Shown: positions 3,138 to 50,018 of the stretch, piece after piece
Position numbering within the stretch: the first letter of the stretch is position 1
Layout: every line of letters begins with the position of its first letter
Origin: Algiphilus sp.
GTDB lineage: Bacteria; Pseudomonadota; Gammaproteobacteria; Nevskiales; Nevskiaceae
NCBI RefSeq assembly: GCF_023145115.1
Contig: NZ_JAGLEJ010000002.1
Location: forward strand, 26,717-90,716
Reading direction: 5' to 3'
Length of the DNA: 64,000 nucleotides
The notes under the pieces: generated by a model
Told to the model about the DNA's origin: nothing
Databases searched by the model: none
What the model saw: only the letters and a program-made list of their open reading frames with translations
Program-made: the position numbers and the translations under genes

Positions 3138-3168
3138 CGCGTCGGTCTCGTTTCCGATGTTCGAAAAA

Positions 3169-3192
3169 GGGCGGCACTGCCGCCCTTTTTTT
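3169..3192 (+). terminator. Rho-independent terminator / attenuator after the acidic-tail gene
   Basis: GGGCGGC-ACT-GCCGCCC stem-loop followed by TTTTTTT. Confidence 0.75.
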
Positions 3193-3222
3193 GATTCCGG
3201 CGCCCGTTCCGTGAACCCGGCC

Positions 3223-4023: not shown

Positions 4024-4052
4024 TCGCGCTCGCATGCGCGTTCCCCCTCGCG

Positions 4053-6251: not shown

Positions 6252-7003
6252 CGGTACAGCGTCTTCTCGTCCTTGCCGCGGCCCTCGCGCTCGGCGCCTG
6301 CGGTGTCTCCACGCCGGTCAGGGATCTAGAGCGCGCGGTCGAGACCACGCCGCGCGAGCGCGATGCCGAAGCCGTCTCGACCACGCTCGAGGCCATACCC
6401 CTGCCGTACTCGCAGATGGCCGTGAGCATCGACGGCGGGCCGCCCGGCCGCATGGCCCTCGCCCGGATCGTGGACGGTGTTCAGGAATGGGTCGCCTTCG
6501 ACGGTCGGACCCTGTGGCTGAGGGGCGGACGCGTCGTCGGCACCGAGGGCTTCCGGACCGATCTGCTGCGCGCCGTCGATGTGCTGCCGCCGGTCGAGCC
6601 GGTGCCGGTTGCCCGCGGAACCACCTCGCAGCGCAGCGGCGCCATCTACGCGGAAGGTGCCGATCGCCGGCTCGGCGGCATCTACACGCTGACGCTGGCG
6701 CGCGAGGGGGGCACGCGGCCGGTCCTCATGGGCAAGGACATCGTGGACCTGGTGCAGGTGACCGAGCGCGTGTCGCGCGGGGACGAGGCCATCGCCGAGA
6801 ACCGGTACTGGGTCGATCCCGCCTCCGGCACGGTGGAGATATCGCGCCAGCGCATTGCGGGAACGCGGCACACCGTCATCATGCAGCGCCTCTATCCGGA
6901 CTACGAGAAGGCCCTGCGCGAGCGCCGCCGGCGCAGCCGGGAGGGCGCGGCGCCGGTCGCCGACGATGCCGCCGAGGCGCCGGTGGCCGCGGAGCAGGAC
7001 TGA
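6248..7003 (+). CDS. YjbF/GfcB family lipoprotein
   Basis: Lipobox LALGAC, about 250 aa. ATGA overlap with yjbH-like. Family assignment rests on size, lipoprotein signal and operon context. Confidence 0.65.
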   Translation: MTVQRLLVLAAALALGACGVSTPVRDLERAVETTPRERDAEAVSTTLEAIPLPYSQMAVSIDGGPPGRMALARIVDGVQEWVAFDGRTLWLRGGRVVGTEGFRTDLLRAVDVLPPVEPVPVARGTTSQRSGAIYAEGADRRLGGIYTLTLAREGGTRPVLMGKDIVDLVQVTERVSRGDEAIAENRYWVDPASGTVEISRQRIAGTRHTVIMQRLYPDYEKALRERRRRSREGAAPVADDAAEAPVAAEQD

Positions 7004-7013
7004 TCGCGTGCGG

Positions 7014-7904
7014 TCAGTCGCTGGCGGGCAGCCAGAAGCGCTCGTCGTCGCGCATCAGCGCGTGCTCCAGGCGCTCCCGCCAGCTCGGCGGGCAGCCCAG
7101 CAGATCGCGCGCGGCGCGGCAGTCGAGCACGCTGTAGGGCGGTCGGTGCGCCGGGGTCGGGAAGTCCTCGGTGAAGATGGGCACCACCTCGCCCGGATCG
7201 AGGTGCCGCCACCGCCGCTGCATGATCGCGCGCACGGCGTCGGCGAGATCGAACCACGACGCGGCGCCCGCGTCGCTCCAGTGCAGGATCCGGCCGCCGG
7301 TCTCGGGGTGTTCGCACAGGGCCAGCAGGGCGCCGGCCAGTCCGGCAGTGTGCGTGGGTGCGCCGATCTGGTCACTGACCACCGTGACTTCGTCGCGCTC
7401 GGCGATCAGGCGCAGCATCGTGCGCACGAAATTGTGGCCGCCGGGGCCGTAGACCCACGAGGTGCGCACGACGGTGGCGTGCTCGCCGGCCGCTTCCATC
7501 ACCGCCCGCTCGCCGTCGCGCTTGGTGCGGCCGTAGACGCCCAGCGGGTTCGTCCCGGCGTCGGGTGCGTAGGGCGTCCACGCGCGGCCATCGAAGACGA
7601 AGTCCGTGGACACGTGCAGCATTCGGGCCCCGACGGCGGCGGCGGCCTGCGCCAGATGGCGCGCACCATCGACGTTGATCGCATGCGCGGCCTCCGGCTC
7701 CGATTCGGCGCGGTCGACGGCGGTGTAGGCGGCGGCGTTGATGATGATGTCGGGCCGCAGGCCGGTGACGGCCTCGCGCACGGCACCGGCATCAGTGATG
7801 TCGAGGCGGGTCCGGTCGGCGGCGTGCAGATCGCATCCGTCGGCGCCGATCCGGGCGATCATGCCCCCGAGCTGACCGCCGGCGCCGACCAGCAGCACGC
7901 GCAT
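7014..7904 (-). CDS. rfbD: dTDP-4-dehydrorhamnose reductase
   Basis: [13 protein letters not shown] Rossmann motif, then ...AAYTAVDRAESEPEAAHAINVDGARHLA...STDFVFDG...PLGVYGRTKRDGE (YxxxK). The start overlaps the rfbC stop (TGATG). Confidence 0.9.
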   Translation of the reverse strand: MRVLLVGAGGQLGGMIARIGADGCDLHAADRTRLDITDAGAVREAVTGLRPDIIINAAAYTAVDRAESEPEAAHAINVDGARHLAQAAAAVGARMLHVSTDFVFDGRAWTPYAPDAGTNPLGVYGRTKRDGERAVMEAAGEHATVVRTSWVYGPGGHNFVRTMLRLIAERDEVTVVSDQIGAPTHTAGLAGALLALCEHPETGGRILHWSDAGAASWFDLADAVRAIMQRRWRHLDPGEVVPIFTEDFPTPAHRPPYSVLDCRAARDLLGCPPSWRERLEHALMRDDERFWLPASD

Positions 7905-8452
7905 CAGTCGAAGACCTCGGCGTCGCGCAGCATGGGCGCGGCTGCGTCCTTGGCCGACAGCGCGGGCGCCTCGTCCAGCGGCCAGTCGATGCCGATGTCG
8001 GGGTCGTCCCAGCGGATGCCGCGCTCGCCGTCGGGGTCGTAGCGGTCGGTCACCTTGTAGAGCACGTCCGCCGATGCGCTGAGCACCACGAAGGCATGCG
8101 CGAAGCCCGCGGGGACCCACAGCTGCAGGCGGTTGTCCGCGGACAGGTGCCGGCCGGTCCAGCGGCCGAAGTTGGGCGAGCCGCGACGGATATCCACGGC
8201 AACGTCGAAGATGGCGCCGCTCAGCACGCGCACCAGCTTGCCCTGCGGATGGGCGCCGATCTGGTAGTGCAGCCCGCGCAGCACGCCCTGCGACGAGCGC
8301 GACTGGTTGTCCTGGATGAAATCGTCGGTGACGCCGGTGAGCTCGCGGAAGGCGCTGCGCTTGAAGGCCTCCATGAAATGGCCGCGGGCGTCGCCGTGCA
8401 CGGTCGGCTCGATCAGGCAGACCTCGGGGAGTTCGGTATCGTGGCGCTTCAC
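7904..8452 (-). CDS. rfbC: dTDP-4-dehydrorhamnose 3,5-epimerase
   Basis: [31 protein letters not shown]...GVLRGLHYQ...[27 protein letters not shown]...[11 protein letters not shown] is the RmlC signature. GTG start overlaps the rfbA stop (GTGA). Confidence 0.9.
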
Positions 8453-9330
8453 GGGCCGTCGCGTCCTTCGTCGGCGATGCGCTCGAGGTAGGCGCCGTAG
8501 CCGCTCTTGCGCAGCGGTGCCGCCAGCGCGCGCAGGGCATCGACGTCGATGAAGCCGCAGCGGAAGGCGACCTCCTCGGGGCTCGCGATCTTGAGGCCCT
8601 GGCGCTTCTCGAGGGTGTGGATGAAGTTGCCCGCCTCCATCAGCGAGTCGTGGGTTCCGGTATCGAGCCAGGCGCTGCCGCGGCCCATGCGCTCGACATG
8701 CAGGGAGCCCATCTGCAGATAGAGGCGGTTGAGATCGGTGATCTCCAGCTCGCCGCGCTCCGACGGCTGCACCTTCCGGGCGAGTTCGGTGACCTGTCGG
8801 TCGTAGAAGTACAGGCCGGTGACCGCGTAGCGCGATTTCGGCTGCCGCGGCTTCTCTTCGATGCCCAGCGCGCGATGATCGGCGTCGAATTCCACCACGC
8901 CGTAACGGTGCGGATCCTTGACGGGGTAGGCGAATATGGTGGCGCCGTGCTCGCGCGCGGCGGCGTTGCGCAGCGACAGCACGAGGTCGTGGCCGAAGAA
9001 GATGTTGTCGCCAAGGACCAGGGCGCAGCGGTCGTCGCCGATGAAGTCGGCGCCCAGCACGAAGGCTTCGGCCAGTCCGTTGGGCGCGTCCTGCACGCAG
9101 TACTCGATGCGGATGCCCCACTGCCCGCCGTCGCCGAGCAGGTGCTCGAAGCGCGGCGTGTCCTGCGGCGTGGAGATGACCAGGAACTCCCGTATGCCCG
9201 CCAGCATGAGCGTGGTCAACGGGTAGTAGATCATCGGCTTGTCGTAGACCGGGATCAGCTGCTTGGACACCGCCAGCGTCGACGGGTACAGCCGCGTGCC
9301 GCTGCCGCCGGCCAGGATGATGCCCTTCAT
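8449..9330 (-). CDS. rfbA: Glucose-1-phosphate thymidylyltransferase
   Basis: [55 protein letters not shown] is near-canonical RmlA. Confidence 0.95.
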
Positions 9331-10385
9331 GCCGTCGCTCCGCGCAGTCCGGCGCGCCGGCGGGCGTCGCCGTGCGCCTGCAGCGCCTGGCACCAGTCGA
9401 GATGGTCGAGATACCAGGTCACCGTGCGTCGCAGACCCGACTCGAAGCTTTCGCGCGGGCGCCAGCCGAGCTCGTCACGGATGCGGGTGGCATCGATGGC
9501 GTAGCGCTGGTCGTGGCCAGGGCGGTCGGTCACGTGGGTGATCAGCGAGGCATACGGCCTCGTGCCCGGTGCCAGCTCGTCGAGCAGCTCGCAGAGCGTG
9601 TGCACCACCTCGATGTTGCGGCGCTCGCTGTTGCCGCCGATGTTGTAGTCGCGCCCCACGGCGCCGTCGCGCAGGACCGTGAGCAGCGCCGCGGCGTGAT
9701 CCTCGACGAAGAGCCAGTCGCGCACGTTGCTGCCGTTGCCGTAGACGGGCAGCGCCTTGCCCTCCAGCGCGTTGAGCAGCATCAGCGGGATCAGCTTCTC
9801 GGGGAACTGATAGGGCCCGTAGTTGTTCGAGCAATTGGTCAGCAGCACCGGCAGCCCGTAGGTGTGGTGCCAGGCACGGACCAGATGGTCGGACGACGCC
9901 TTGCTGGCCGAATACGGCGAGCGCGGCGAATAGGCGGTGGTTTCGGTGAACTGCCCCTCGGCGCCGAGGCTGCCGAAGACCTCGTCGGTGGAGACGTGGT
10001 GGAAGCGGAAGCGCGTCGCTCGCTCGGCGGGCAGCTGCTCGAAGTAGCGTAGCGCCGCCTGCAGCAGCTCGAAGGTGCCCACGATGTTGGTCTGCACGAA
10101 GGCGCCGGGCCCGTCGATGGACCGGTCGACGTGCGACTCGGCCGCCAGGTGCACGATGGCGTCCGGCTGGTGGCGCGCCAGCACGCCGGCGACCGCGGCA
10201 CCGTCGCAGATATCGACCCGCTCCAGCGTGTAGCGGCCGGTGCTGGCGGCATCCTCCAGCGCCTCCGGGCTCGCCGAGTAGGTGAGCTTGTCGACGTTCA
10301 CGACCACGCAGTCGGTCGTTCGCAGCACGTGACGGATGAATGCGGAGCCGATGAACCCGGCGCCCCCTGTGACCAGAAGTTTCAT
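9327..10385 (-). CDS. rfbB: dTDP-glucose 4,6-dehydratase
   Basis: [14 protein letters not shown]...[12 protein letters not shown]...[22 protein letters not shown] is the RmlB signature. Confidence 0.95.
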
Positions 10386-10602: not shown

Positions 10603-11682
10603 ATGCTGACCGTTCTCCTACTGGTGCTGGCCACGAGCGTCATGCTCAACGCCGGCATCGTGCTCACCCGCAGGTGGCACATCGCGGTCACCGGCGATGC
10701 GGTCGTGGCCGGTTCCTACAAGAAGCACCGGGAACCGGTGCCCCGCATCGGCGGCCTCGCCATCTTCCTGGCGCTGACGCTCGGGGTGGTGCTGGCCGCA
10801 CCCTGGCTCTATCCCAGCATCAATTACGTGTTCTGGGCCATGACTGCCTGCGTGGCGCTGATGTTCGGCATCGGTTTCCTCGAGGACCTCACCGGCAAGG
10901 TCCGGCCCACCATCCGCTATCTGGTCTGCATCGCGGCGGCGCTCGTGTTCAGCCTGGCCAACGCCCGGTTGGGCATCAGCTCGGTCGCCATCCCGTGGGT
11001 CGATCAGGCGCTCGCCTACGCCCCGGTGAGCGTGCTGTTCTTCGCCTTCGCGGTGGCCGGCATGACCCACGCCAGCAACCTCATCGACGGCCAGAACGGG
11101 CTCTGCGCCGGATTCTCGCTGCTCGCCTTCCTGGCCCTCGGGCTCGCGGCCGGCGCCTCCGGGCAGGTCGCGCTCGCGGCGCTCTGCGAGATCGCCATCG
11201 CCGCCACTCTCGGCTTCCTGCTGTTCAACTTTCCGCACGGCCGCATCTTCCTGGGCGACGGCGGCGCCTATCTCAACGGCGCCGTGGTCGCGATCCTGGC
11301 CGTGCTGGTGGTCAACGGCGCTTCCGGCATCTCCCCGTGGCTCGCGGTGGCGGTGCTCATCTACCCGGTGACCGAGACCTTCTACAGCATGATCCGGCGC
11401 CGCCGCGAGGGCCGCCCGTTCTACGAGCCCGACGACGCCCATCTCCACCACCTGCTGCGCGACCTCGCCGTCGCCCGGGGCTGGCCGCTGGCGCGCGTGC
11501 CGGCCCTGATGCCGCTGGCGATGATGGCGCCGTTCATGCTGGCCGCTCCGTTCGGTGCGCACTCCACGCCCGTCATGCTGGCGTACTGTGCAGCCTTCGC
11601 AGTGCTTTACGTCGCGGTCTACCGCGCGGCGAGCGCGTCCCTGTCGAAGGCGCGGGAAGAAGCCGTGCAGATGGGCGAGTAG
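10603..11682 (+). CDS. Polyprenyl-phosphate HexNAc-1-phosphate transferase (WecA/WbpL/MraY superfamily) - initiating enzyme
   Basis: 359 aa polytopic membrane protein with HREPVPRIGGLAIF, NLIDGQNGLCAGF and FLGDGGAYLNG motifs typical of this family. Confidence 0.85.
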   Translation: MLTVLLLVLATSVMLNAGIVLTRRWHIAVTGDAVVAGSYKKHREPVPRIGGLAIFLALTLGVVLAAPWLYPSINYVFWAMTACVALMFGIGFLEDLTGKVRPTIRYLVCIAAALVFSLANARLGISSVAIPWVDQALAYAPVSVLFFAFAVAGMTHASNLIDGQNGLCAGFSLLAFLALGLAAGASGQVALAALCEIAIAATLGFLLFNFPHGRIFLGDGGAYLNGAVVAILAVLVVNGASGISPWLAVAVLIYPVTETFYSMIRRRREGRPFYEPDDAHLHHLLRDLAVARGWPLARVPALMPLAMMAPFMLAAPFGAHSTPVMLAYCAAFAVLYVAVYRAASASLSKAREEAVQMGE

Positions 11683-12857: not shown

Positions 12858-15800
12858 TCAGGTGGTCTCTCGCGCGACCGCACGCCAGTCATTGCGCACG
12901 AACATGGATCGAAAGGCATCCCTGTCGCTGCTCCGCAACGTGCTCGTCGCCTGCTGGAGGAAGTGATAGAGCTTGGCATGCGGGGTGTAGATGATGCGCT
13001 TGCCGGCAATGCGGCGGACCGCTTCGCAGTACAGGCGATCGGAGCGATAGTGCGGTGCGTTCTCGTGATCGAGCGGGCCGAGAGTGTCCAGGGTTGCCCT
13101 CGGGATGTAGACACAGAAGAAGGGAGCGAAGCTCAGCTCGATATAGCCCGCGGGTCCGGATAGCGGCCGGAGCACATTGTCGTGGTGGGCGGAGAGGTTG
13201 ACCTCGATTTCGCGTTCCGGGTCGCAGGCGGGGCTGTGCGTACGGGTGGTCTTGGTGCCGGCGAGCAGCGTCTGACGCGACACCACCAGGCCCGCATCCG
13301 GCACATCTTCCAGGACGCGCTGCATGGCGCCGTCCCAGCCCGGGCAGACAACCGCATCGTTGTTGAGCAGTACGATGTCACTGTCGGCTGCGGCCGATTC
13401 AATGCCCTGGTTGACGGCATAGGTGAAGCCGTAGTTGCGCTCGTTGAGGATGACGCGGATATCGGGGTCATCCGCAATGCGCGACAGGTAGCTGCGTACT
13501 GGCTGCGAGGAGGCGTTGTCGACCACGATCAGACGGTATGGCGCTTCGGTGAAGGCGCGGACCGATTCGATGCAGAGCTGCAGGTGCTCCGGGCACTCGA
13601 AACTGGGGATGACGATCCCGAGCGGACGCCGTATCCGCGGAACGGGCCGGTGCTCCGGCGCGAACATCGCTTCCAGCCCCGGCACGCGGTGTCCCGGCAG
13701 CGCGTGCGCCAGCGGCTCGCGCGCGAGCGTTGCGCTTAGCGCCGCATTCTCGTCGAGCGATGACGCCGCCTCGGCAGCCGGGTCCCTGCCCTGGCGCTCG
13801 CTCAGCAGGCACGGCACCGCGACGCCGGCACTGGATGCGGAAATCGCCAGCAGGAAGGCCTGCCCGGACAGGTGGTCGAGGTCGGTGTCGAATCCGCCCG
13901 AAGACTCGGCTGCCGCACGTCGGCAGAGAACGCTGCCCAGGTCGATGTAGTCGCGATTCTCAAGCATTGCGCGCGCGAACATCGCGAAGGTTATGGCGTC
14001 GGGCTCCGTGTCCCCGGACGCGATGTCGAATCGGGTGCTCTGCGCGCTGTAGGCGAAGGGCGCTTCGGGCGCCTCCTGCAGCGTATCGAGCAGAATGGTG
14101 ATCGCGTGCGGCATCGGCCGGTGGTGGGGCTCCAGCCACATCAGATGGTCTCCGCCGGCCTTCGCCATTCCGGCGTTGCGCGCCGCCGCGATCCCGGGTT
14201 CGGTGACGGGGACGGTGCGCACGCGCGCGTCCTGCAGGGCCTCGCGCAGGCCTTCGACCTCGGCTCCGCCGACGAGCAGGAGCTCGATATTGTCGTGGCT
14301 CTGGGCGAGCACGCTCCGCGCCGCTTCGCCCGCCGCCTGGATCTCTTCTGCGTCGCAGTGGAGGATCACCGACACGCGGTCGTCGAGATTCCGCGAGGCC
14401 GCGCGCGCGCGACGATGGCGTTCGACCGCGTGCATGTGCCCGATTACGCGCTTTGCTTCCTCGGAGAACGGTGCGCGCAATGGTGGCAGGAACAGTGAGC
14501 GGCGCTCGAAGCTCTCGTAGTCGGTGAAGCCCGGCCCCTCGGGATCGGTTGAAGCCGGTGGGGGCGTTGGCGGGGGCGCCGGAGCCGGGGTAGGAGCCGA
14601 CTCAGTCGAGGGGGTGGGGGGCGTGATGTCCGCGAACTTGCGGCGGATGGCCGCTTCGTTGTCGGCCAGCGATTGCGTCAGCGTTATGTTGGAAAGGCCC
14701 TCAGCGATGTAGTACGCACACATCGCGTACGGATTGAATACCGGCTCGTGCTGGTGGGTGTAGCGGAGGATGAGGTCCCAGTCGACCAGTCGCGTCAGCG
14801 ACTCGTCGAAGCCGCCCAGCGCCTCGTAGACTTCGCGGTGGTGGGAAAAGACGTTGAGATCGATGTAGTTGCGCGCCAGCAAGCGGGACCAGTCGAAGGG
14901 TAGATGGCGGATGAACTCGCGACCCCCCACCTCGTCATGGACATGCACGCACGCGTACGCGGTGCGCCTCTCCGGATGTCGCGCGTATCCGGCCGCGGTC
15001 ATTAGCAGATAGTCCGGGTGCCAGGTGTTGTCGGAATCCAGCCACGCAATCCATGGTCCCTCGGCCGCGCGCAATCCGGCATTGCGTGCAGCACAGACAC
15101 CGCCATGCGGCAGTGCGAGGTAACGCAGTCGCCCGCGCGCGAACTCGTCGGCATAGCGTTCCCTCACGTATTCGGCAGTGCCGTCGGTGCTGCCGTCGTC
15201 GCAGATGATCAACTCCCAGTCGGGGTAGGACTGCGCGATCACCGAATCGATGGCCTTGTCGATGACGTCACGCCGGTTCCACGTCGGCATGATGATGCTG
15301 AACCGGCCCACGGGCGCTTTCTCCAGCGCGGTGCGAGCCTCGGTCGCGCGCTCGGGAGTGACCATGAGCGCGCGCGCCTGTTCGGAACGGGGGTCGATCT
15401 TGTCCTGCACCGGCGCCGGCACGGGGCGCACGGACGCAGTCGTGCCGGTGGTCGGCCGCGTTCCGAGTCGTCCTTCATCGCGCCCGACGAGCAGATAGTG
15501 CCAGAGTGCCGGTACGCCGGCGCGCTCGATTTCCGGATAGCGCTTGCGGTACCAGGCCAGGTCGAAGCGAGCACTCGGTGAGCGGCTCTCGGCCTGACCA
15601 TGGTGCAGGTAGTGACGCAGCGGATCCACGCCGGCGCGAGCAACGTCGCGGTAGCGGGTGAGGTACCAGTGCGGATCGAAGTGCGGTCCGGGCGCGCGCA
15701 TCTCGTCCGGCCCGTGCTCCAGGTAGTGGAACAGCGGGTTGAGCCCGGCCTCCGCGACGTCGGGATACTGCTCCAGATACCAGCTCGGATCGAAGAGCGG

Positions 15801-17417
15801 ATTGGGCTCGCGCCCCTCGCGCCAGCCCACGGCCAGCCAGTGCCACAACGGGTGGGCGCCATCCAGCGCGATGTCCGGATAGCGCAGCAGATACCACTCG
15901 GCATCGAACAAGCCGGTCCCGCGCAGCATGCGGGCCTGGCGCATCAGGCGGGCGTGCTCGCGCGGGCCGGTGGCGGCGCCGAACAGACGCAGCGGTGGCA
16001 CGCTGCGCGGGATGTGGACGGGTGTCTCGTCGGGGCGCAGGGCCCGCCGCCACCGCGCTGCCTTCCAGGGGGGCGGCTGCCACTGCAGGCGATGGAGGCG
16101 GCGAAGGGTGGCGAGGCGCTGCGAGAGCGCCCCCAGATTGCGCCGTCGCTCGGCGGTGAGGGCGGCTTCGTGTGTCGCGATCCGGTCACGCTGCTGTCGA
16201 TGTTCCGCCTCGAGCCGGTCGATGCGCTGCTTCTGCCACGCAATGCCACGCTTGAGCTCGTTCGTCCGCTCCCGGTGCCAGCGCACACCCTGCTCGAATC
16301 GGTCGCGCTCGGTGACGGCTTCACGATGGGCATCCTGCAGCGCCTCGATGCGGGATGCCTGCTCACGGATGCGCTCGTCGCGTTCACGGAGCGCGCTGGC
16401 CTGTTCCTCGGTCGTGGCTCGCTGTTGCTGCAGGGCCTCGGCCGCTTCGCGATGCTTCTCCTCCTTGCTCGTGGCCTTGGCATGCGCGGACCGCCGCGCC
16501 GCGACCTCTTCGCCGAACAACGGCCCCAGCGCCTCGGAGGCGCGATCGAGCTCGGTCCGGAGGGTATCGAGCCGGTCGACCGATTCCGGATTCTCGGGTT
16601 GCCGGCAGAGAATGGTGAGCGCCTCGGTCGCTTCCCGCACCCAGCGGGAGACGGTGGGGTCGGTGAAGAAGGCGTCAGTATCCACTGCATGATGACGCAG
16701 CCGACTGACCAGGAAGTCGTCCAGTGCATCCGCGGCATCCGATTCCGCGCGCGGATAGCGGATCGCCAGGCGCTCACTGATGGCGCTGGTGACACTGCGC
16801 CAGTCGTCCAGCAGGTCGGTATAGGCCACGAACACGCGCGGCCGCCCCCGGGTCGCATGCTCGGCATCGAGCACATGCCGCAGCCACAGGATGTGTCCCT
16901 TGGGCAGAGCGAAACCGTTGCGCTGCTGCAGCGACGCTGCTACCTCGGCGGGGCTGCGCAGCGGGATGATGGCTCGCGCGTCGGCACCGAAGCGTTCGAT
17001 GACCTCTTGCCAGAACGGCACCATGCGACAGATGCGCGGGTCCTTGAGAACGAAGAGCGCGGTGTTCGTGAAGTCGCGCTGTAGCAGCGCCACGGCTTCA
17101 TTGAGCAGACTTTCGCGTATTTCCGGGTCCAGCCGAGTCGTATCCAGTGGTCGCCAATCGTCCCAGTGCGATCCGAATGCATCTAGGACGCGGTCGTTCA
17201 GACGCTGGATATCGACGGACTCCCAGAATCCTGCCTCGTTCGCCGGACGCGCAGCCATGAGGTTGTCCGGCAACGCCGCGCCGAGAAGGCTCATCGCGCG
17301 GGTCAGGGCGGAGGTTCCGCTCCGGTGCATCCCGAGCACGAGCAACGCGGTGCCGCGCTCGGCGCCGGATGCCGCCGTGGGGTGCCGCTGCATGGGGTCT
17401 GTGGTCTCGCTGTCCAT
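12858..17417 (-). CDS. 1519-aa multidomain enzyme: sulfotransferase, coiled coil, 4 WY/HYL repeats, GT2, Pro-rich linker, degenerate GT2-like, GT2
   Basis: Sulfotransferase motifs GMHRSGTSAL (5'-PSB-like) and LRSPAEVAASL (3'-PB-like) at aa 29-165. Heptad-rich Arg/Glu/Gln region at aa ~285-445. Four ~38-aa repeats at aa 500-650. FSIIMPTWNRRDVIDKAIDSVIAQSYPDWELIICDDGSTDGT...AWLDSDN (GT2). TPPTPSTESAPTPAPAPPPTPPPAS linker. VSVILHCD...WLEPHH (GT2-like with DxD lost). LGIVIPSFECPEHL...LIVVDNASS...LLNNDAVV (GT2). Start taken at ATG 17417 (alternative 17393); the first 160 aa of the track ORF look non-coding. Confidence 0.85.
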   Translation of the reverse strand: MDSETTDPMQRHPTAASGAERGTALLVLGMHRSGTSALTRAMSLLGAALPDNLMAARPANEAGFWESVDIQRLNDRVLDAFGSHWDDWRPLDTTRLDPEIRESLLNEAVALLQRDFTNTALFVLKDPRICRMVPFWQEVIERFGADARAIIPLRSPAEVAASLQQRNGFALPKGHILWLRHVLDAEHATRGRPRVFVAYTDLLDDWRSVTSAISERLAIRYPRAESDAADALDDFLVSRLRHHAVDTDAFFTDPTVSRWVREATEALTILCRQPENPESVDRLDTLRTELDRASEALGPLFGEEVAARRSAHAKATSKEEKHREAAEALQQQRATTEEQASALRERDERIREQASRIEALQDAHREAVTERDRFEQGVRWHRERTNELKRGIAWQKQRIDRLEAEHRQQRDRIATHEAALTAERRRNLGALSQRLATLRRLHRLQWQPPPWKAARWRRALRPDETPVHIPRSVPPLRLFGAATGPREHARLMRQARMLRGTGLFDAEWYLLRYPDIALDGAHPLWHWLAVGWREGREPNPLFDPSWYLEQYPDVAEAGLNPLFHYLEHGPDEMRAPGPHFDPHWYLTRYRDVARAGVDPLRHYLHHGQAESRSPSARFDLAWYRKRYPEIERAGVPALWHYLLVGRDEGRLGTRPTTGTTASVRPVPAPVQDKIDPRSEQARALMVTPERATEARTALEKAPVGRFSIIMPTWNRRDVIDKAIDSVIAQSYPDWELIICDDGSTDGTAEYVRERYADEFARGRLRYLALPHGGVCAARNAGLRAAEGPWIAWLDSDNTWHPDYLLMTAAGYARHPERRTAYACVHVHDEVGGREFIRHLPFDWSRLLARNYIDLNVFSHHREVYEALGGFDESLTRLVDWDLILRYTHQHEPVFNPYAMCAYYIAEGLSNITLTQSLADNEAAIRRKFADITPPTPSTESAPTPAPAPPPTPPPASTDPEGPGFTDYESFERRSLFLPPLRAPFSEEAKRVIGHMHAVERHRRARAASRNLDDRVSVILHCDAEEIQAAGEAARSVLAQSHDNIELLLVGGAEVEGLREALQDARVRTVPVTEPGIAAARNAGMAKAGGDHLMWLEPHHRPMPHAITILLDTLQEAPEAPFAYSAQSTRFDIASGDTEPDAITFAMFARAMLENRDYIDLGSVLCRRAAAESSGGFDTDLDHLSGQAFLLAISASSAGVAVPCLLSERQGRDPAAEAASSLDENAALSATLAREPLAHALPGHRVPGLEAMFAPEHRPVPRIRRPLGIVIPSFECPEHLQLCIESVRAFTEAPYRLIVVDNASSQPVRSYLSRIADDPDIRVILNERNYGFTYAVNQGIESAAADSDIVLLNNDAVVCPGWDGAMQRVLEDVPDAGLVVSRQTLLAGTKTTRTHSPACDPEREIEVNLSAHHDNVLRPLSGPAGYIELSFAPFFCVYIPRATLDTLGPLDHENAPHYRSDRLYCEAVRRIAGKRIIYTPHAKLYHFLQQATSTLRSSDRDAFRSMFVRNDWRAVARETT
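15468..15920 (-). repeat. Protein-level tandem repeats (4 x ~38 aa): LFDxxWYLxxYPDVxxAGxxPLxHYLxxGxxEGRxPxP
   Basis: GLFDAEWYLLRYPDIALDGAHPLWHWLAVGWREGREPNP / LFDPSWYLEQYPDVAEAGLNPLFHYLEHGPDEMRAPGP / HFDPHWYLTRYRDVARAGVDPLRHYLHHGQAESRSPSA / RFDLAWYRKRYPEIERAGVPALWHYLLVGRDEGR. Confidence 0.85.
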
Positions 17418-18276
17418 CAGTGGAATTATGGCTGGATCAGGCAACGCGGCATGACGCCCGATGCCATTGCGTCGCGTTTCGCCGTTGCGACAGCTCGCCC
17501 ACGGTGCGCAGCTATGCGGCACACGCTTAGCGAAAGCGGTTGCGTACGATAGCAATGCAGTGCCTGCAAGCGGATCTTGCCGCCGGTGTGCGCCACGGCT
17601 GGCATGCTCCGGTCCGCGCGGTCTGCGGGACTCTCCGCGGGCAAGGCGGCAGCCGGATGCTGCGCAGTTGCTCGCGCACGCATGCAGCACGGTACGGTGG
17701 GTGTCTGGCGGCACGGCGGTTCTCCCCGTGTCGCGGGGTCGGGCCGCGGCACAGACGCGATCGCCCGATTCACAACGGGCGGGCCCGCGTTCCGGTGCGA
17801 GTGCGACAGCGCGTAAGACCTTGTGATTGCGAGGAATCCTGTCAGGCCGGTCGGACGCGGCCGGGAGGGTGTTGTGGCGCGGGGAAGGAGCGCGCATGCG
17901 CGCGAGCCCGAGCGAGGGGGCGGTGGAGGGCGCTTCTGCCGAGGCACGCCGGTTGTCGGGTGGACGGCTCCGATGATCCGGCTGCGCTTCACCGTGTTAC
18001 GGTGACGGGGAGTGCGGTTGATTCCAAGTCACCGAGTTGCAAAGCAACTTCGGCCGCCGGTCGAAAACGTGAACTTGGTCGCATGTCCCCGATATTGGGG
18101 CTTGCTCAACCGCATCTACTTCGGCATGCTTCGCCGAACCTCAGCGCGGGGTTGCGCGTGCGCTGGAGGTTGATCACGAGTTCGGGGGAATCACCTGAGT
18201 GCAAGCAAACAGTCGTCAGCACGTTGGGACGAACCCGGCTTCAGAAAGTTGTTCTCTTGTACAAGGAGATTTTGGG

Positions 18277-20053: not shown

Positions 20054-21061
20054 ATGATCGATCGCCGCTTTTTCCCCGTGCTGCTTTCCGTGCTCCTCGC
20101 CGCCTGTTCGCCCGAAACCGAGGCACCTTCAGGCGGTGCCGATCCGCTGGCCAGTGGGTCGGGAGTGGCCGTGACCGCAGACGATCTCGAGACCGAGCTG
20201 GCGCTCATGAGCGATCAGGAGCGTGCCAAGGCACTGGGTTCGGCCAAGGCGCTGCAGAGCGCGATTACCAGCGTCTTCTATCGGCGCCGGATGGAGGACA
20301 TCGCATCCGAGCGCGGTTATCTCGACGATCCGACGTTGCAGCAGCGCATCGCCCGGAATCGGGAGATGATCATCGCCAACGCGGTGCCCGAGATGTATCT
20401 CGCCGAACTCGAGCAGCCGGACTTCGAGGCGCGAGCCCGGGAGTACTACGAAGCGAATTCGGAGGAGTTCCGTCCCCCCGAGCGCATCGCCGCCTCGCAC
20501 ATCTTCTGGCAGGCGCCCAGCGACGACGATAAGAAGCGGGTGCGCGAGGAGGCAGAGTCGGTGCTCGAGCAGCTCCGCAATGGCGCGGAGTTCGGCGCAC
20601 TAGCCACCGAGCATTCACAGGACGGCTCGCGTTACGCGCGCGGCGAGCTGGGTACCTTCAAGCGGGGTGACATGGCCCCCGGATTCGAGGAAGCCGCCTT
20701 CGCGTTGAAGGAGGCGGGCGACATCAGCGGGATCGTGGAAAGCCGTTTCGGTCTGCACATCATCAAGCTGGACAAGCGCTATCCGAATGCGGTGCCGCCT
20801 TTCGAGGAGGTCCGGGGGCGCATCGTCCAGCGACTGCGGAACGAGTTCCGACACGAGAAGGTATCCGCCTGGCTGAAGGACAAGGTACCGAGTTCGGAAA
20901 CCGCCGTGGCCGAGCCGGAGCTATCAGCCGCGCTGGAGCGCATGCGCGAGCGGTACGGCGCACCGGAGCGGGATGAGAGCGCTGGAGGGAAGGCCGCGTC
21001 GAGTTCGGTGGCTCCCGGCGAGCCGGTTTCGCCGGATGAGGGCGAAGACCTGGCCCGGTAG
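20054..21061 (+). CDS. Parvulin-type peptidyl-prolyl cis-trans isomerase lipoprotein (PpiC/EpsD-like)
   Basis: Lipobox LLAACS. Rotamase domain ASHIFWQAP...FGALATEHSQDGSRYARGELGTFKRGDMAPGFEEAAFALKEAGDISGIVESRFGLHIIKLDKR. Confidence 0.8.
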   Translation: MIDRRFFPVLLSVLLAACSPETEAPSGGADPLASGSGVAVTADDLETELALMSDQERAKALGSAKALQSAITSVFYRRRMEDIASERGYLDDPTLQQRIARNREMIIANAVPEMYLAELEQPDFEARAREYYEANSEEFRPPERIAASHIFWQAPSDDDKKRVREEAESVLEQLRNGAEFGALATEHSQDGSRYARGELGTFKRGDMAPGFEEAAFALKEAGDISGIVESRFGLHIIKLDKRYPNAVPPFEEVRGRIVQRLRNEFRHEKVSAWLKDKVPSSETAVAEPELSAALERMRERYGAPERDESAGGKAASSSVAPGEPVSPDEGEDLAR

Positions 21062-21069
21062 GAGCGGGC

Positions 21070-21795
21070 ATGCTGCGCTTCCTCGGCATCGGCGCCCAGA
21101 AGGCCGGGACCACCTGGCTGTACGAGCGCTTGCGCCGGCATCCGGAGGTGGGCTTCCCGATCGGCAAGGAAGGGCATTACTGGGATCGTGTCAATCCCGA
21201 GGGCAGCCATGACAGCTATATGGCGCGCTTTGCCGATCCGGAGCGGGCGGAAGGCGAGATCACGCCAGCGTACGGATTTCTACCACCGGCCTCTATAGCG
21301 CGTCTGCATTCGCTGGCTCCGGACGTGCGGTTGATCTTCCTCATGCGCAATCCGGTGGAGCGCGCCTGGTCGTCGGCCCTGATGGCGCTGGGGCGCGCGG
21401 AGATGCGCTACGAGGAAGCCAGCGCGGCATGGTTCCTGGACCACTTTCGTTCGAGTGGATCGCTGGCGCGCGGTGATTACGCGGCATGCATTGCCAACTG
21501 GCGTGCGGCGTTTCCGCCCGAACAGCTGCTTCTGTTGCGCCACGAGGAGGTCGCGCGTGATCCGCACGCCGTGCTGCGTCGCTGCTGCGCGCACATCGGT
21601 ATCGCGGCGCCGGATCCGGCGATGCTCGAAGGCAGCGACGATCGCGTTTTCTCCGGACCGCGCCACGCGCTTCCCGGGGACCTGCGCGCAGCCCTGGTGG
21701 CACTGTATCGTCCACGGATCGCGGCGCTGGAGGCCCTGCTGGGCGAATCCTTCGAGCACTGGCTGGAAATGGACGCTGCTGACCATCCCGAATAG
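21070..21795 (+). CDS. Sulfotransferase (carbohydrate-sulfotransferase-like PAPS motifs)
   Basis: FLGIGAQKAGTTWLYERL (5'-PSB, compare the K-x-G-T-T motif of heparan-sulfate sulfotransferases) and LIFLMRNPVERAWSS (3'-PB R-x-P-x-x-R-x-x-S). 241 aa. Confidence 0.8.
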   Translation: MLRFLGIGAQKAGTTWLYERLRRHPEVGFPIGKEGHYWDRVNPEGSHDSYMARFADPERAEGEITPAYGFLPPASIARLHSLAPDVRLIFLMRNPVERAWSSALMALGRAEMRYEEASAAWFLDHFRSSGSLARGDYAACIANWRAAFPPEQLLLLRHEEVARDPHAVLRRCCAHIGIAAPDPAMLEGSDDRVFSGPRHALPGDLRAALVALYRPRIAALEALLGESFEHWLEMDAADHPE

Positions 21796-26261: not shown

Positions 26262-27089
26262 ATGAGCGACCACGATCAGTCCGATGCCGAATGGCGCCCC
26301 CCGTCCTCGGCCGGCGGTTCGCGCAACAGCCTGCAGGTCTTCGTCACCTCGCTCGGTGCCTTCGTGCTGCGCGAGCTCAAGAACCAGTTCGGGCGCTCGC
26401 GTCTCGGCTACTTCTGGGCGATCGCCGAGCCGGCGGCGGTGGTGGCCATCCTGACCACCCTGCACGCCTTCGTGCGCGGCGAACGTGCGCTGGTCTACGG
26501 AGAGAGTCCGGTGGTCTTCTTCGTGTTCGGCGCCGTGCCCTATTTCCTGTTCATGAACGTCGCGCAGAGCGCGCAGGGCGTCTGCACCGGGCACAAGGGG
26601 CTGTTCAATTACCGGCAGATCAAGCCCATCGACATCATCCTGGCACGCGGTCTCATCGAAGCGGTGATGATGGCGGCGGTGGGGGCGTTGTTCCTGTTCG
26701 GCTGGTGGTGGATGGGCTTCGAGTTGAAGATCGACGACCCGCTCGAGCTGGTCGTCTCGCTGTCCGCCCTGTTCCTGCTGGGCTTCGGCCTCGGCCTGTG
26801 CTTCGAGGTGTTCGGGACCATCTTCCAGGACATGAAGCGCATCTTCGGCATCGTCATGCGGCCGATGTTCTTCATCTCGGGGCTGTTCTTCACCATCGAC
26901 ATGATCCCGGTCGAGTACCGCGGGCTGTTGATCTGGAATCCGGTGCTGCATGCAGTGGACTTCACGCGCGATGCCGTCCTGGTCGGGTACAGCTCGCCGG
27001 GGAGCGTGGCCTACCTGGTGCTGTCCATCGGCATCCTGCTCTTCGTCGGGCTGGCGGCGTACCGTCGCTATCTCTTCCAGCTCATCTGA
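26262..27089 (+). CDS. kpsM: ABC-2 type polysaccharide export permease (KpsM/Wzm-like)
   Basis: 275 aa, 6 predicted TM segments. LRELKNQFGRSRLGYFWAIAEPAAVVAIL is the typical KpsM/CtrC N-terminal motif. Directly upstream of the ATPase. Confidence 0.85.
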   Translation: MSDHDQSDAEWRPPSSAGGSRNSLQVFVTSLGAFVLRELKNQFGRSRLGYFWAIAEPAAVVAILTTLHAFVRGERALVYGESPVVFFVFGAVPYFLFMNVAQSAQGVCTGHKGLFNYRQIKPIDIILARGLIEAVMMAAVGALFLFGWWWMGFELKIDDPLELVVSLSALFLLGFGLGLCFEVFGTIFQDMKRIFGIVMRPMFFISGLFFTIDMIPVEYRGLLIWNPVLHAVDFTRDAVLVGYSSPGSVAYLVLSIGILLFVGLAAYRRYLFQLI

Positions 27090-27096
27090 GACGATC

Positions 27097-27768
27097 GTGA
27101 TTCGCGTCTCCAATATCACCAAGTCCTATCCGATCCAGGGCTTCGCGCGCTACACCGTATTGCGCGATCTGAGCCTGGAGCTGCCGTCACGCACGCCGGT
27201 AGGCATCGTCGGCCGCAACGGGGCCGGCAAGAGCACGCTGCTGCGGCTGCTCGGCGGGATCGAGCTGCCCGACCGTGGCCGGGTCGAGGCGGACGGCCGC
27301 ATTTCGCCTCCGCTGGGTCTGACCAGCGGGTTCGCGCAGCGCATCTCGGGGCGCGACAATGCCCGCTTCGTGTCGCGGATCAATGGCGACGACCGCGCGA
27401 CCCAGCGCGAGCGCGTTGCCTACATCCACGCCTTCTCCGAACTAGGTGACTTCTTCGAGCGGCCGGTGGAGACCTATTCCTCCGGCATGCGGGCGCGGCT
27501 GGCGTTCTCGATCAGCATGTCCTTCGAGTTCGACTACTACCTGATCGACGAGCTCACCGCGGTGGGCGACCAGAAATTCCGCGCCAAGGCGCAGAAGACC
27601 TTCGAGGAGAAGAAGGGCCGGTCCAGCGTCATCATGGTCAGCCACAATCTGGGCCAGCTCAAGCGCGACTGCACCGTGGGCGTCTACCTGCGCGCCGGCG
27701 AGGCCGTCTACTACGACGATATCGAGGCGGCGATCGCCGCCTACAACGAGGATGTACAGCATTCATGA
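27097..27768 (+). CDS. kpsT: Polysaccharide export ABC ATPase (KpsT-like, no C-terminal carbohydrate-binding extension)
   Basis: GTG 27097. Walker A GRNGAGKST, signature YSSGMRARLAF, Walker B YYLIDE. Only ~223 aa. Confidence 0.9.
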   Translation: MIRVSNITKSYPIQGFARYTVLRDLSLELPSRTPVGIVGRNGAGKSTLLRLLGGIELPDRGRVEADGRISPPLGLTSGFAQRISGRDNARFVSRINGDDRATQRERVAYIHAFSELGDFFERPVETYSSGMRARLAFSISMSFEFDYYLIDELTAVGDQKFRAKAQKTFEEKKGRSSVIMVSHNLGQLKRDCTVGVYLRAGEAVYYDDIEAAIAAYNEDVQHS

Positions 27769-28868
27769 AGGTGGATCCGCCCTGGAAGGCGAACAAGCTG
27801 CTGCGATACGTGGGCGTTGTGCTCGCGCCGACCCTGCTGGTGCTGCTCTATCAGGCGCTGATCGCGTCGGACGGCTACATAAGTGATGCGCAGGTCATGG
27901 TCGAGCATGAAACACCGATGCCGGCCCCCGAACTGGCCATCGGCAACCTCCTGGGCAGTACGCCCACCAAGACCGATGCGCTGGTGGTGAAGACCTTCAT
28001 GGAGTCGCGCGCGATGCTGGAACACCTCGAGGAGACGCTCGATCTGCGCGCGCACTTCAGATCGAAGGACATCGACCCCTGGAACCGCCTGGCGCCGGAC
28101 GCGACACGCGAGGAAGTGCTGGCCTACTACCTCGATCATCTCGAGGTGACCGTCGATCAGGAGTCCTACATCCTCAACATCGCGTTCGTTGCCTACGATC
28201 CGGCCTTTGCGCAGCAGGTCACCCAGGAACTCGTGGCGCGCAGCGAGAGCTTCGTCAACAACATCAGCCAGCATCTGGCGCGCGAACAGATGCAGTTCGT
28301 GCAGGGCGAGGTGGAGCGCGCGCACGGCGAGCTCAAGAAGGCCTCGCGCGAGATGGTGGATCTGCAGCAGCAGTACGAAGTGCTCAGCCCCGAATCGGAA
28401 TCGGAAGCCGCCGGCACCATCCTGGCCGGTCTGCTGCAGGAGCTGGCGAAGCAGCGGACGCAGCTCAAGGCACTGACCAGCTATCTCAATTCCGGCGCTT
28501 CGGAGGTCGTGCAGACGCGCCAGAAGATCGCCGCGCTGGAGGAGCAGATCGCGCAGGAGCGCGCCAAGCTGGTCGGGGACGAGGGCTACGAAGGCCTCAA
28601 CGAGCTCATGCTCGCCTATCAGGACGCCGAGGTGAATCTCAAGGTGGCCACGGAGGTCTATCAGTCGGCGATCGGAACGCTCGAGACCACCCGCCTGGAG
28701 ACTGCGCGCAAGGCCAAGTATCTGGTATCGGTATCGGCGCCGGGGCTGCCCGACGAGGCCGAGCACCCGCGCATCCTCTACTGGACGGGCACCGTCTTCG
28801 TCTTCCTCAATCTCGCCTACTTCGTGCTCGGACTGATCATCGCCACGGTCCGCGATCACCGGGAGTGA
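27765..28868 (+). CDS. kpsE: Capsule export inner-membrane adaptor (KpsE/CtrB, PCP-3-like)
   Basis: N-terminal TM LRYVGVVLAPTLLVLLYQALIASDGYISDAQVMVE, a long coiled periplasmic region and a C-terminal TM WTGTVFVFLNLAYFVLGLIIATV. ATGA overlap with kpsT. Confidence 0.8.
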   Translation: MKVDPPWKANKLLRYVGVVLAPTLLVLLYQALIASDGYISDAQVMVEHETPMPAPELAIGNLLGSTPTKTDALVVKTFMESRAMLEHLEETLDLRAHFRSKDIDPWNRLAPDATREEVLAYYLDHLEVTVDQESYILNIAFVAYDPAFAQQVTQELVARSESFVNNISQHLAREQMQFVQGEVERAHGELKKASREMVDLQQQYEVLSPESESEAAGTILAGLLQELAKQRTQLKALTSYLNSGASEVVQTRQKIAALEEQIAQERAKLVGDEGYEGLNELMLAYQDAEVNLKVATEVYQSAIGTLETTRLETARKAKYLVSVSAPGLPDEAEHPRILYWTGTVFVFLNLAYFVLGLIIATVRDHRE

Positions 28869-30580
28869 CCATCATGCGACGCCGTTTCATCGCCACCCTG
28901 GCCGTGCTGCTGCTGCCCGCGGCGCTGCCCGCGCAGCAACTGCCCATGTTCGAGCCGGACGCCGAGTCGCTGATGCCGACCACGCCGCAGGTGTCGCAGT
29001 CCGGGGCGCGTCAGGTACAGCCCACCGACCCGCCGCCCAAGGAGCGGCCGAAGGACGACGATCTCCGCGAGGTGGAGACCGGTCCGGACGCCCCCTTCGG
29101 CGCCTACCTGTTCCGCGGTCGCTTCGCGCAGGAATCCTTCCGCGGCTTCAATCCGGATTACGTGATCGGCGTCGGCGATCGCATCAACATCAAGCTCTGG
29201 GGCGCCTTCGAGGCCACCCAGCAGCTCGAGGTCGATTCCCAGGGCAACATCTTCGTGCCGCGCGTCGGGCCCATCAGCGTGCAGAACGTGCGCAACGAGG
29301 ATCTCAACCGGGTCATCAACCAGCGCATCAAGAACGTCTACCGGGAGAACGTGGGGGTCTACGCTGCGCTGGCGGTGGCCGATCCGGTACGCGTCTTCGT
29401 CACCGGCAACGTCGAGGCCCCCGGCCTCTACGCGGCGCACGGCTCCGATTCGCTGCTGCACTTCCTCGACCGCGCCGGCGGCATTGCGCCCGACAGCGGC
29501 AGCTATCTGGACGTGCGCGTGCTGCGCAACGGCGAGGAGCGTGCGCAGGTCGATCTCTACGATTTCCTGCTGCGCGGCGAGCTGCCGCTCATCCAGTTCC
29601 GCGATGGCGACACCATTCTCGTCGAGCGTCGCCACTCCACCGCGACGGTCAGCGGCATGGTCGATCGCGAGGCACGCTTCGAGTTCAAGCAGTCGATTCC
29701 GCTGCCCGAGCTGCTGTCCTACGCGGGCGTGCAGGAGCGCGCCACCCACGTGCAGGTCATCCGCAACCAGACCCGGCAGCGCGAGGCCGAGGTGCTGGCG
29801 CTGGGCGGCGGGCTGGCGTCGGTCGACATCGTGTCCGGAGACGAAGTGCGCGTCTTCGAGGACCGGCGCATCGGCGCCATCACCGCGTCCGTCGAGGGCG
29901 AGTTCCAGGGCGTCAGCCAGTTCGTGCTGCCCTACGACAGCACCCTGCAGGATCTGCTCGACCGCATCGAGGTCACCGACCGCTCCAATCTCGCCGGTCT
30001 CCAGCTCTATCGCCAGAGCGTGGCCCAGCGCCAGAAGGAAGTGCTCGACCAGATGCTGCGCAAGCTCGAGGAGGCGGTGCTCAGCGCGCGCTCCGGCACA
30101 CGAGAGGAGGCCCAGCTCCGCGTGGCCGAGGCCGAGCTCATCAAGGAGTTCATCGAGCGCGCGTCCAAGGTCGAGCCCAAGGGACGCGTCGTGCTGCACA
30201 AGGGGTTCGATCCGGCCTCCATCGCCCTCGAAGACGGCGATGTCCTGCGTGTTCCGCGGCACAGCAACACCGTTGCGGTGCAGGGCGAGGTCTTCCTGCC
30301 GACCTCCTTCGTGCATCAGGAGGGCAAGCCCGTCGACTACTACCTCGAGCAGGCGGGCGGCCTGACCCAGGCCGGCGGCGGTGACAAGATCTTCGTGATG
30401 CGGGCCAACGGCGAGATCGCCGATGCCAAGAGCGGCCTCTTCACGCGGACCCGGGTGCGGCCCGGTGACGAGATCATGGTGCTGCCCACCGTGCAGCTGA
30501 AGACCTTCCAGTTCACCAAGGATCTCACCCAGGTGATGTCGCAGGTGGCGCTGACCGCGGGCGTGGTGCTAGGGATCTGA
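28865..30580 (+). CDS. kpsD: Polysaccharide export protein (KpsD/OPX family with SLBB domains)
   Basis: Signal peptide RRRFIATLAVLLLPAALPAQQ. YVIGVGDRINIKLWGAFEATQQLEVDSQGNIFVPRVGPISVQN (Poly_export motif) and several SLBB-like repeats (GDTILV, GDVLRVP, GDEIMVLP). The start could be ATG 28874. Confidence 0.8.
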   Translation: MTIMRRRFIATLAVLLLPAALPAQQLPMFEPDAESLMPTTPQVSQSGARQVQPTDPPPKERPKDDDLREVETGPDAPFGAYLFRGRFAQESFRGFNPDYVIGVGDRINIKLWGAFEATQQLEVDSQGNIFVPRVGPISVQNVRNEDLNRVINQRIKNVYRENVGVYAALAVADPVRVFVTGNVEAPGLYAAHGSDSLLHFLDRAGGIAPDSGSYLDVRVLRNGEERAQVDLYDFLLRGELPLIQFRDGDTILVERRHSTATVSGMVDREARFEFKQSIPLPELLSYAGVQERATHVQVIRNQTRQREAEVLALGGGLASVDIVSGDEVRVFEDRRIGAITASVEGEFQGVSQFVLPYDSTLQDLLDRIEVTDRSNLAGLQLYRQSVAQRQKEVLDQMLRKLEEAVLSARSGTREEAQLRVAEAELIKEFIERASKVEPKGRVVLHKGFDPASIALEDGDVLRVPRHSNTVAVQGEVFLPTSFVHQEGKPVDYYLEQAGGLTQAGGGDKIFVMRANGEIADAKSGLFTRTRVRPGDEIMVLPTVQLKTFQFTKDLTQVMSQVALTAGVVLGI

Positions 30581-50011: not shown

Positions 50012-50018
50012 TCCGCCC

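Follow-up and report, generated by a model that had tools for sequence, protein, structure and literature searches.

The 64,000-nucleotide stretch of Algiphilus sp. DNA analyzed here (contig NZ_JAGLEJ010000002.1 of assembly GCF_023145115.1, positions 26,717 to 90,716; the whole stretch is called the window below) carries a gene for a giant protein of 1519 residues. From the N terminus to the C terminus, this single chain comprises a sulfotransferase fold, a heptad-periodic helix of ~168 residues, four repeats of ~38 residues, and three family 2 glycosyltransferase (GT2) modules. The giant protein is a cytoplasmic multidomain assembly enzyme encoded in a locus for a surface polysaccharide exported by an ATP-binding cassette (ABC) transporter. 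A terminating enzyme mounted on a coiled-coil ruler is a well-studied means of chain-length control in the assembly of O antigens and related glycans. By analogy with such systems, we give about an even chance to the reading that the giant protein is a polymerase and terminator in one, in which a sulfate would cap the chain and the coiled coil would act as the ruler; this reading rests on architecture and genomic context. The gene and its parts, all on the minus strand, are as follows, with PF00535 bit scores taken from isolated segments.

12858..17417, minus strand: giant gene, 1519 aa (sulfotransferase, coiled coil, repeats, GT2, probable pseudo-GT2, GT2)
16602..17354, minus strand: sulfotransferase-fold domain, aa ~22-272, from motifs, AlphaFold/Foldseek and a sub-threshold PF13469 match
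16086..16589, minus strand: predicted coiled-coil spacer, aa 277-444, from AlphaFold helices and 3.5-residue periodicity
15453..15965, minus strand: helix plus four ~38-aa repeats, aa 485-655, from AlphaFold, with no Pfam or PDB relative
14643..15311, minus strand: GT2 module a, aa ~703-925, PF00535 at 114 bits, with DDGSTDGT, DSDN and DWD intact
13803..14381, minus strand: GT2 module b, aa ~1013-1205, PF00535 at 45 bits, degenerate
12948..13628, minus strand: GT2 module c, aa ~1264-1490, PF00535 at 68 bits, with VVDNASS and NNDA

The GC content of the window is ~69%, and as a result it contains many spurious long open reading frames (ORFs). Read from its first ATG, the giant-gene ORF occupies 12858..17897 on the minus strand, and the ATG at 17417 yields the 1519-aa product, to which an independent public gene call (P0001) is 100% identical. 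The third-position GC content of the gene is 0.80, and its codon-position GC pattern fits a real gene. The 1679-aa version starting from the ATG at 17897 was treated as high-GC read-through and not as the real N terminus. No obvious Shine-Dalgarno sequence precedes the ATG at 17417. Upstream of the gene lies a divergent intergenic region of 780 bp (17418-18198) from which the ops/JUMPStart element is absent, its two matches in the window lying elsewhere and at chance level; an Rfam scan of positions 1-36 kb of the window matched no family. The same locus organization is found around two orthologues, P0002 (77% identity, locus L084) and P0003 (46% identity, GCA_000733765.1, locus L001).

The N-terminal domain has a sulfotransferase fold with intact predicted motifs for binding 3′-phosphoadenosine-5′-phosphosulfate (PAPS). 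Pfam makes no sulfotransferase call on the whole protein, and since the isolated domain scores below threshold, we used structure and motifs for the assignment. In an AlphaFold model of residues 1-700, the predicted local distance difference test (pLDDT) score is mostly 80 to 97 across this domain. When the model was compared with the PDB by Foldseek, all 17 of the best matches were sulfotransferases or proteins of sulfotransferase fold, namely TPST, CurM/OLS ST, Stf1, and retinol dehydratase (probability, 0.99-1.0; target-normalized template modeling [TM] score, 0.31-0.51), with Stf9 and Stf0 lower in the list. A profile search of PDB sequences gave six weak matches (E 0.36-0.73), all to sulfotransferases and all aligned on the nucleotide-binding motifs, which are consistent with a sulfotransferase but not significant alone. 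An alignment of 22 homologous domains, with 27-49% identity to that of the window, shows the 5′-phosphosulfate-binding (5′-PSB) loop GMHRSGTS (G29 to S36) to be invariant, together with the 3′-phosphate-binding (3′-PB) motif R154...S162, which is of the RxPxxxxxS type with its two residues eight apart. E66 and the KDPR motif at 125-128 (K125, P127, and R128) are likewise invariant, and E66 is a candidate catalytic base. The loop aligns with GLVRTGTT of Stf1, and R154...S162 aligns with VRHPYAVIES of the CurM type and VRNPKDTAVS of the SULT enzymes. The lipopolysaccharide sulfotransferase LpsS of Sinorhizobium meliloti was considered as a family member and set aside, being annotated in the Stf0 family, a different group (PMC12445080).

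Behind this domain, AlphaFold predicts two helices, 277-371 and 384-444, interrupted at 372-383 by a stretch of low confidence. The segment from 285 to 445 abounds in R, A, E, L, and Q and includes a run free of proline and glycine (303-376). Only 0.2% of shuffled sequences surpass its hydrophobic periodicity at 3.5 residues (p~0.002), and there is no signal at 3.6 residues; library scans of the spacer gave weak matches of the SMC, SlyX, and DUF16 type. If colinear, the ~168 helical residues would span ~25 nm.

The repeat domain that follows comprises four units at residues 503-655, with the consensus FDxxWYLxxYPDVAxAGxNPLxHYLxxGxxEGRxP. Searched against Pfam at E≤10, it matched no family and gave a single chance match. 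Modeled alone by AlphaFold, it reaches a pLDDT of 91.6 and a predicted TM score of 0.85, and a comparison of this model with PDB folds found no relative, the best match having an E value of 4.8. Across homologues, the repeats number from 2 to ~24; they also occur in P0012-P0014 and in many loci. Whatever the answer about the cap, the fold of the repeat domain is predicted with confidence and has neither a Pfam family nor a solved relative.

Pfam analysis of the whole protein recognizes three PF00535 GT2 stretches, at residues ~705-920, ~1013-1200, and ~1265-1490. The best PDB sequence match of module a is the chondroitin polymerase K4CP (2z86). Module c is weakly similar to rhamnosyltransferases (TIGR01556, E 1.4e-4) and is 81% identical to its counterpart in P0002, 63% in P0003, and 56% in P0032. 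Module b has VGGAEVEG where DDxSTDGT would stand, LEPHH in place of DSDN, and SGQAF in place of DWD/E; these motifs are lost also in the orthologues P0002 and P0003, and they are kept in the distant homologues P0032, P0052, and P0061. With all three motifs gone, module b is probably a noncatalytic pseudo-GT2, which leaves modules a and c as the two probably active GT2 modules of the protein, as judged from their motifs. Module b would then be an example of an inactive module retained within a polymerase. An earlier note on this DNA had described the protein as a sulfotransferase at one end and three GT2 modules at the other, separated by a heptad-rich region of ~160 aa (aa ~285-445) and a repeat domain. 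The fold, the motifs, and the three PF00535 stretches bear out the two ends, apart from the lost catalytic motifs of the middle GT2; the heptad-rich region agrees with the predicted helices and their periodicity, and the repeat domain lies where it was placed.

A search for homologues with the same domain order, which the earlier note had suggested, showed that the arrangement of sulfotransferase, coiled coil, and repeats is kept in nearly all of the 120 best homologues, whereas the glycosyltransferase modules are swapped or dropped. The sulfotransferase domain is present in all 120, nearly always at 40-58% identity, and lies at or near the N terminus in all but one. In nearly all of them a spacer of 119-664 aa comes next, with 71-899 aa of repeats after it. 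The C-terminal modules vary among GT2, GT1/GT4, RgpF, WbsX-like, and methyltransferase domains, and ~10 of the proteins have none. The spacers are poor in proline and glycine, and 75% of them are enriched in heptad periodicity. Within orthologue groups the spacer keeps its length despite sequence divergence: the distance between a sulfotransferase landmark and the first repeat is 298, 297, and 292 aa in the window's group, where coiled-coil identity falls to 25-32%, and mostly 215-223 aa in a second group.

In a search of 1.84 billion sequences, counted as representatives of 50%-identity clusters, the profile of the sulfotransferase domain matched 27,078 representatives under a threshold of E≤1e-3 and 12,791 under one of E≤1e-30, with the domain almost always N-terminal. 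It is present in the genomes of at least 585 species from several phyla, and the phyla of the family include Proteobacteria, Cyanobacteria, Bacteroidota, Planctomycetota, and Acidobacteriota. Members also occur on plasmids of Cereibacter (Rhodobacter) sphaeroides 2.4.1 and Methylosinus trichosporium OB3b. Glycosyltransferase domains are absent from P0029, P0044, and two R. sphaeroides proteins, the latter encoded as follows.

Plasmids pA and pB of Cereibacter sphaeroides 2.4.1, L083 14971-16329 and L087 12019-13434: stand-alone sulfotransferase–coiled-coil homologues of 452 and 471 aa, accessions WP_011836244 (pA) and WP_017140449 (pB)

One of this pair adjoins a gene for a GH99-like protein, ABC transporter genes, and rfb genes, and the other adjoins a gene for an RgpF rhamnan synthase. 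C. sphaeroides 2.4.1 is a model organism in which the function of the family would be tractable for testing.

The genes around the giant gene include those for rhamnose synthesis, initiation, sulfation, and export.

7014-~7904 (rmlD), 7904-8452 (rmlC), 8449-9393 (rmlA), and 9327-10385 (rmlB), minus strand: dTDP-L-rhamnose synthesis, from Pfam
10603..11682, plus strand: WecA-like polyprenyl-phosphate GlcNAc-1-P transferase (initiation), PF00953; TIGR02380 at E 4.5e-31
21070..21795, plus strand: stand-alone sulfotransferase, 241 aa, PF13469 at 63.9 bits and PF00685 at 48 bits
26262..27089, plus strand: ABC-2 permease, KpsM-like, PF01061; NF050053 KpsM at 132 bits (below its cut-off)
26950..27768, plus strand: ABC ATPase, nucleotide-binding domain only, PF00005; true start probably near 27085
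27765..28868, plus strand: inner-membrane export protein of the KpsE/BexC/CtrB family, TIGR01010 at 278 bits (below the cut-off of 437)
28865..30580, plus strand: outer-membrane polysaccharide export (OPX) protein, PF02563, PF22461, PF10531
33301..34134, plus strand: second stand-alone sulfotransferase-like gene, 277 aa, PF13469 at 29.9 bits, with a start codon and the PSB-like motif LGVSRGGTS

The locus thus carries three sulfotransferase genes, one fused and two stand-alone. The WecA-like gene adjoins the giant gene also in L001, L084, and L086. No KpsC/KpsS-type (PF05159) gene was found among the window ORFs above our size and third-position GC filters, the initiator being WecA-like instead. 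At L084, the orthologous locus of 77% identity, a methyltransferase gene (6717-7451) stands in place of the first stand-alone sulfotransferase gene while the fused sulfotransferase is kept, which suggests that the fused enzyme belongs to a conserved core and that the stand-alone enzymes are interchangeable decoration around it.

Among characterized proteins, the closest architectural match is ORF6 of the Klebsiella pneumoniae O7 system, closer than WbbB or WbdD. O7 ORF6 consists of a methyltransferase-kinase, a carbohydrate-binding module, a coiled coil, and two GT2 rhamnosyltransferase modules (PMC11231755). It shares with the giant protein an N-terminal modifying enzyme, an extended coiled coil (here predicted), and C-terminal GT2 modules, and the setting is also alike, being an ABC-transporter-dependent, rhamnose-containing glycan with a WecA-type primer. 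It differs in its methyl-phosphate cap, in a Wzt that carries a carbohydrate-binding module, and in having neither 38-aa repeats nor a pseudo-GT2; the likeness drawn here is one of architecture. [quoted passage not shown] In WbdD of Escherichia coli O9a, a coiled coil lies between the terminating enzyme and the site that recruits the polymerase, a format mirrored by the family members that have only sulfotransferase, coiled coil, and repeats (Phyllobacterium L019 and the R. sphaeroides proteins on pA and pB). WbdD differs from the giant protein in being a kinase-methyltransferase, in bearing an amphipathic membrane helix at its C terminus, and in recruiting a polymerase that is fused in the giant protein. 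The variable C termini of the family parallel, by analogy, the WbbB-like, O7-like, and WbdD-like formats.

[quoted passage not shown] A phmmer search with the whole protein against PDB chains found only GT2-type enzymes, nothing named WbdD or WbbB, and no homology in the catalytic domains, so that the likeness to WbbB and WbdD is one of architecture and not of protein family. The giant protein would be a variant of the ruler-terminator kind, set apart by its sulfate chemistry and its additional repeat domain, and is not by sequence a member of the WbbB or WbdD families. The resemblance to WbbB and WbdD/WbdA asserted in the earlier note holds for the polarity of the domains and for the ABC-transporter locus but fails for sequence homology and for the ATPase, which has no carbohydrate-binding module. 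Its further statement that no sulfate cap had been described fared better for bacteria: neither a bacterial sulfate cap nor a sulfotransferase–coiled-coil protein was found in the literature searched, which included neither the WbbB paper of 2017 nor the O-antigen review of 2020. There is, however, a eukaryotic precedent, since PMC12514197 cites Sheikh et al. 2020 for the HNK-1 sulfotransferase acting on LARGE1-made matriglycan as a length-controlling cap. This enzyme is PAPS-dependent but is a separate polypeptide of the eukaryotic Golgi, from unrelated organisms and with no coiled-coil ruler, and we liken it to the giant protein by function.

A second comparison is with group 2 and group 3 capsules (KpsMTED), with which the window shares KpsM-, KpsT-, KpsE-, and OPX-like export genes, these being relatives and not equivalogs. 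Cobetia marina makes a rhamnose-containing capsule that is exported by KpsMTED and has an internal sulfate (Rha2S), and the paper reporting it describes no fused sulfotransferase–coiled-coil protein (PMC11766843). The polymer of the window is probably rhamnose-containing and sulfated, as are the Cobetia capsules.

Several observations weigh against a terminating role for the sulfate. The nucleotide-binding-domain match of the window's ATPase extends to the stop codon and leaves a C-terminal extension of 0 aa (the L001 orthologue is 224 aa long), so that this ATPase has no carbohydrate-binding module of the Wzt_C type, and the exporter to which it belongs is KpsM/KpsT/KpsE/OPX-like. Short ATPases without the module are also found in 20 of the 24 homologous loci that have an ABC ATPase within 10 kb. 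The transporter carries a carbohydrate-binding module in every experimentally terminated O-antigen system, and at least one capsule ABC pathway operates without a terminating residue (PMC11231755); the window's exporter is of the capsule type. No transmembrane segment and no convincing WbdD-like C-terminal amphipathic anchor was found in the giant protein, and the window ORFs that were scanned included none of the PAPS synthesis and recycling genes cysN, cysC, and cysQ. Residues 1-300 in isolation score 19.1 bits against PF13469, where the cut-off is 27, although the match covers profile positions 3-214 of 216. Finally, the sequence and context data fit terminal and internal sulfation alike, and the two other sulfotransferases in the locus make internal sulfation a live alternative. 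According to that alternative, which we consider possible though rather unlikely, the fused sulfotransferase would modify internal residues during chain synthesis, either in each repeat unit or at intervals, the only role of the coiled coil and repeats would be to oligomerize the enzyme complex and give it a scaffold, and chain length would be set by the coupling of polymerization to export and not by a cap. It would account for an exporter that has no cap-reading Wzt_C module, in the window and in most homologous loci; it has a known counterpart in the internally sulfated C. marina capsule; and three sulfotransferase genes are what one would expect of a heavily sulfated polymer. It offers no obvious rationale, however, for placing ~168 helical residues and a set of repeats between an internal modifier and its polymerase, and known internal modifiers are usually stand-alone enzymes, of which the locus already has two. 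Moreover, the format of modifying enzyme, coiled coil, and glycosyltransferase belongs to a terminator in every case characterized so far (PMC11231755), and Wzt_C does occur in some of the homologous loci.

Those loci number four of the 24 (L019, L037, L058, and L070). In each, the ATPase has a C-terminal extension of ~200-250 aa that matches PF14524 (Wzt_C), and the sulfotransferase–coiled-coil gene directly adjoins wzm and wzt+Wzt_C. The Leptolyngbya locus L037 has the order wzm, wzt+Wzt_C, sulfotransferase, sulfotransferase–coiled coil–GT2–GT2, sulfotransferase, GT2–GT2, and no methyltransferase, kinase, or Kdo-transferase candidate was seen in it. L070 has the order wzm, wzt+Wzt_C, sulfotransferase–coiled coil–GT2–GT2, and Phyllobacterium L019 has a stand-alone sulfotransferase–coiled-coil gene beside wzm and wzt+Wzt_C; L058 also holds methyltransferase domains. 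Two other accounts of the sulfotransferase domain deserve consideration. It may act elsewhere, on the primer or adaptor region, the lipid anchor, or another molecule, with the coiled coil recruiting partner enzymes; the acceptor cannot be read from sequence, and the members without glycosyltransferases (P0029, P0044, and the R. sphaeroides proteins of 452 and 471 aa) show that the module can function as a protein of its own. A terminator in its own polypeptide is what WbdD has as well, though, and the module is found consistently in glycan-assembly loci and fused to polymerase-type glycosyltransferases, which makes action elsewhere improbable in our view. Far harder to credit is a catalytically dead, sulfotransferase-like module for binding or regulation. 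The sub-threshold Pfam score and the weakness of the PDB profile matches would be in keeping with one, but the 5′-PSB and 3′-PB motifs, E66, K125, and R128 are invariant across the 22 divergent homologues, conservation within the family is highest in this domain, and homologues do exceed the PF13469 threshold (31.2 bits for L037, 31.4 for L019, and 28.3 and 30.9 for R. sphaeroides).

A polymerase that is also a sulfate-capping terminator is a plausible reading of the giant protein, favored by the order in which the domains run, the modular build of the family, the conserved length of the spacer, and the relatives linked to Wzt_C. The mechanism, drawn by analogy with K. pneumoniae O7 ORF6 and O12 WbbB and with E. 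coli O9a WbdD, might run as follows. The two putatively active GT2 modules would polymerize a rhamnose-containing repeat on a polyprenol-linked primer, while the coiled coil, probably oligomeric, and the rigid repeat domain would hold the sulfotransferase ~25 nm or more from the polymerase. On reaching the sulfotransferase, the growing nonreducing end would be sulfated from PAPS at the hydroxyl required for the next transfer, and this terminal sulfation would stop elongation and set the modal chain length. The stand-alone sulfotransferases of the locus would add internal sulfates. Because the window's ATPase has no Wzt_C, export there would be independent of cap reading, and in the Wzt_C loci the sulfate might double as an export tag.

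More tentatively, and at a little under even chance, the module of sulfotransferase, coiled coil, and repeats may define a very large class of bacterial terminators in which a nonreducing-end sulfate would stop polymerization (and would serve as an export tag in the Wzt_C loci), with the solenoid of 38-aa repeats, in 2 to ~24 copies, as a second, modular ruler alongside the coiled coil. All characterized caps are methyl, methyl-phosphate, or Kdo. If the sulfate cap is real, it would extend the terminator mechanism to a new chemistry and, with PAPS, to a new donor, and it would predict a new class of ligand for Wzt_C modules. It would also provide a function for proteins, numbering in the tens of thousands, whose annotation goes no further than “sulfotransferase” or “glycosyltransferase,” including those of Cereibacter sphaeroides 2.4.1 and Methylosinus trichosporium OB3b, and parts for the engineering of sulfated polysaccharides of defined length.

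The other features of the locus and its flanks are the following.

2914-7003, plus strand: yjbG-like (SLBB), yjbH, and yjbF genes, flanking the locus in the window, L001, and L084
11725-12849, plus strand: 374-aa ORF, ending 9 bp from the giant-gene stop codon
18199-19902, plus strand: 567-aa secreted protein, its signal peptide clear, unmatched in Pfam and NCBIfam
20054-21061: peptidyl-prolyl isomerase, from Pfam
~21.8-26.3 kb: several glycosyltransferases
~30.6-32.3 kb: further glycosyltransferases
49977-51767, plus strand: SulP-family sulfate permease, ~16 kb beyond the locus

Two overlapping ORFs of 957 and 929 aa on opposite strands at 31.3-34.2 kb (31345-34236) were rejected as high-GC read-through; real coding sequence appears to be limited to the C-terminal ~300 aa of the one on the minus strand (a rhamnosyltransferase) and the C-terminal 277 aa of its plus-strand partner (the second stand-alone sulfotransferase). 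The 374-aa ORF at 11725-12849 matches no family but has a GT-A-like FIFDIDS motif and may be an unclassified glycosyltransferase. The gene for the 567-aa secreted protein is divergent from the giant gene and has a counterpart beside the giant gene in L001, with 62% identity; counterparts beside the giant gene in L084 and L086 were judged by position and size only. The yjbG, yjbH, and yjbF products are relatives of the Gfc proteins of group 4 capsules, which hints at additional outer-membrane machinery beside the KpsE and OPX proteins.

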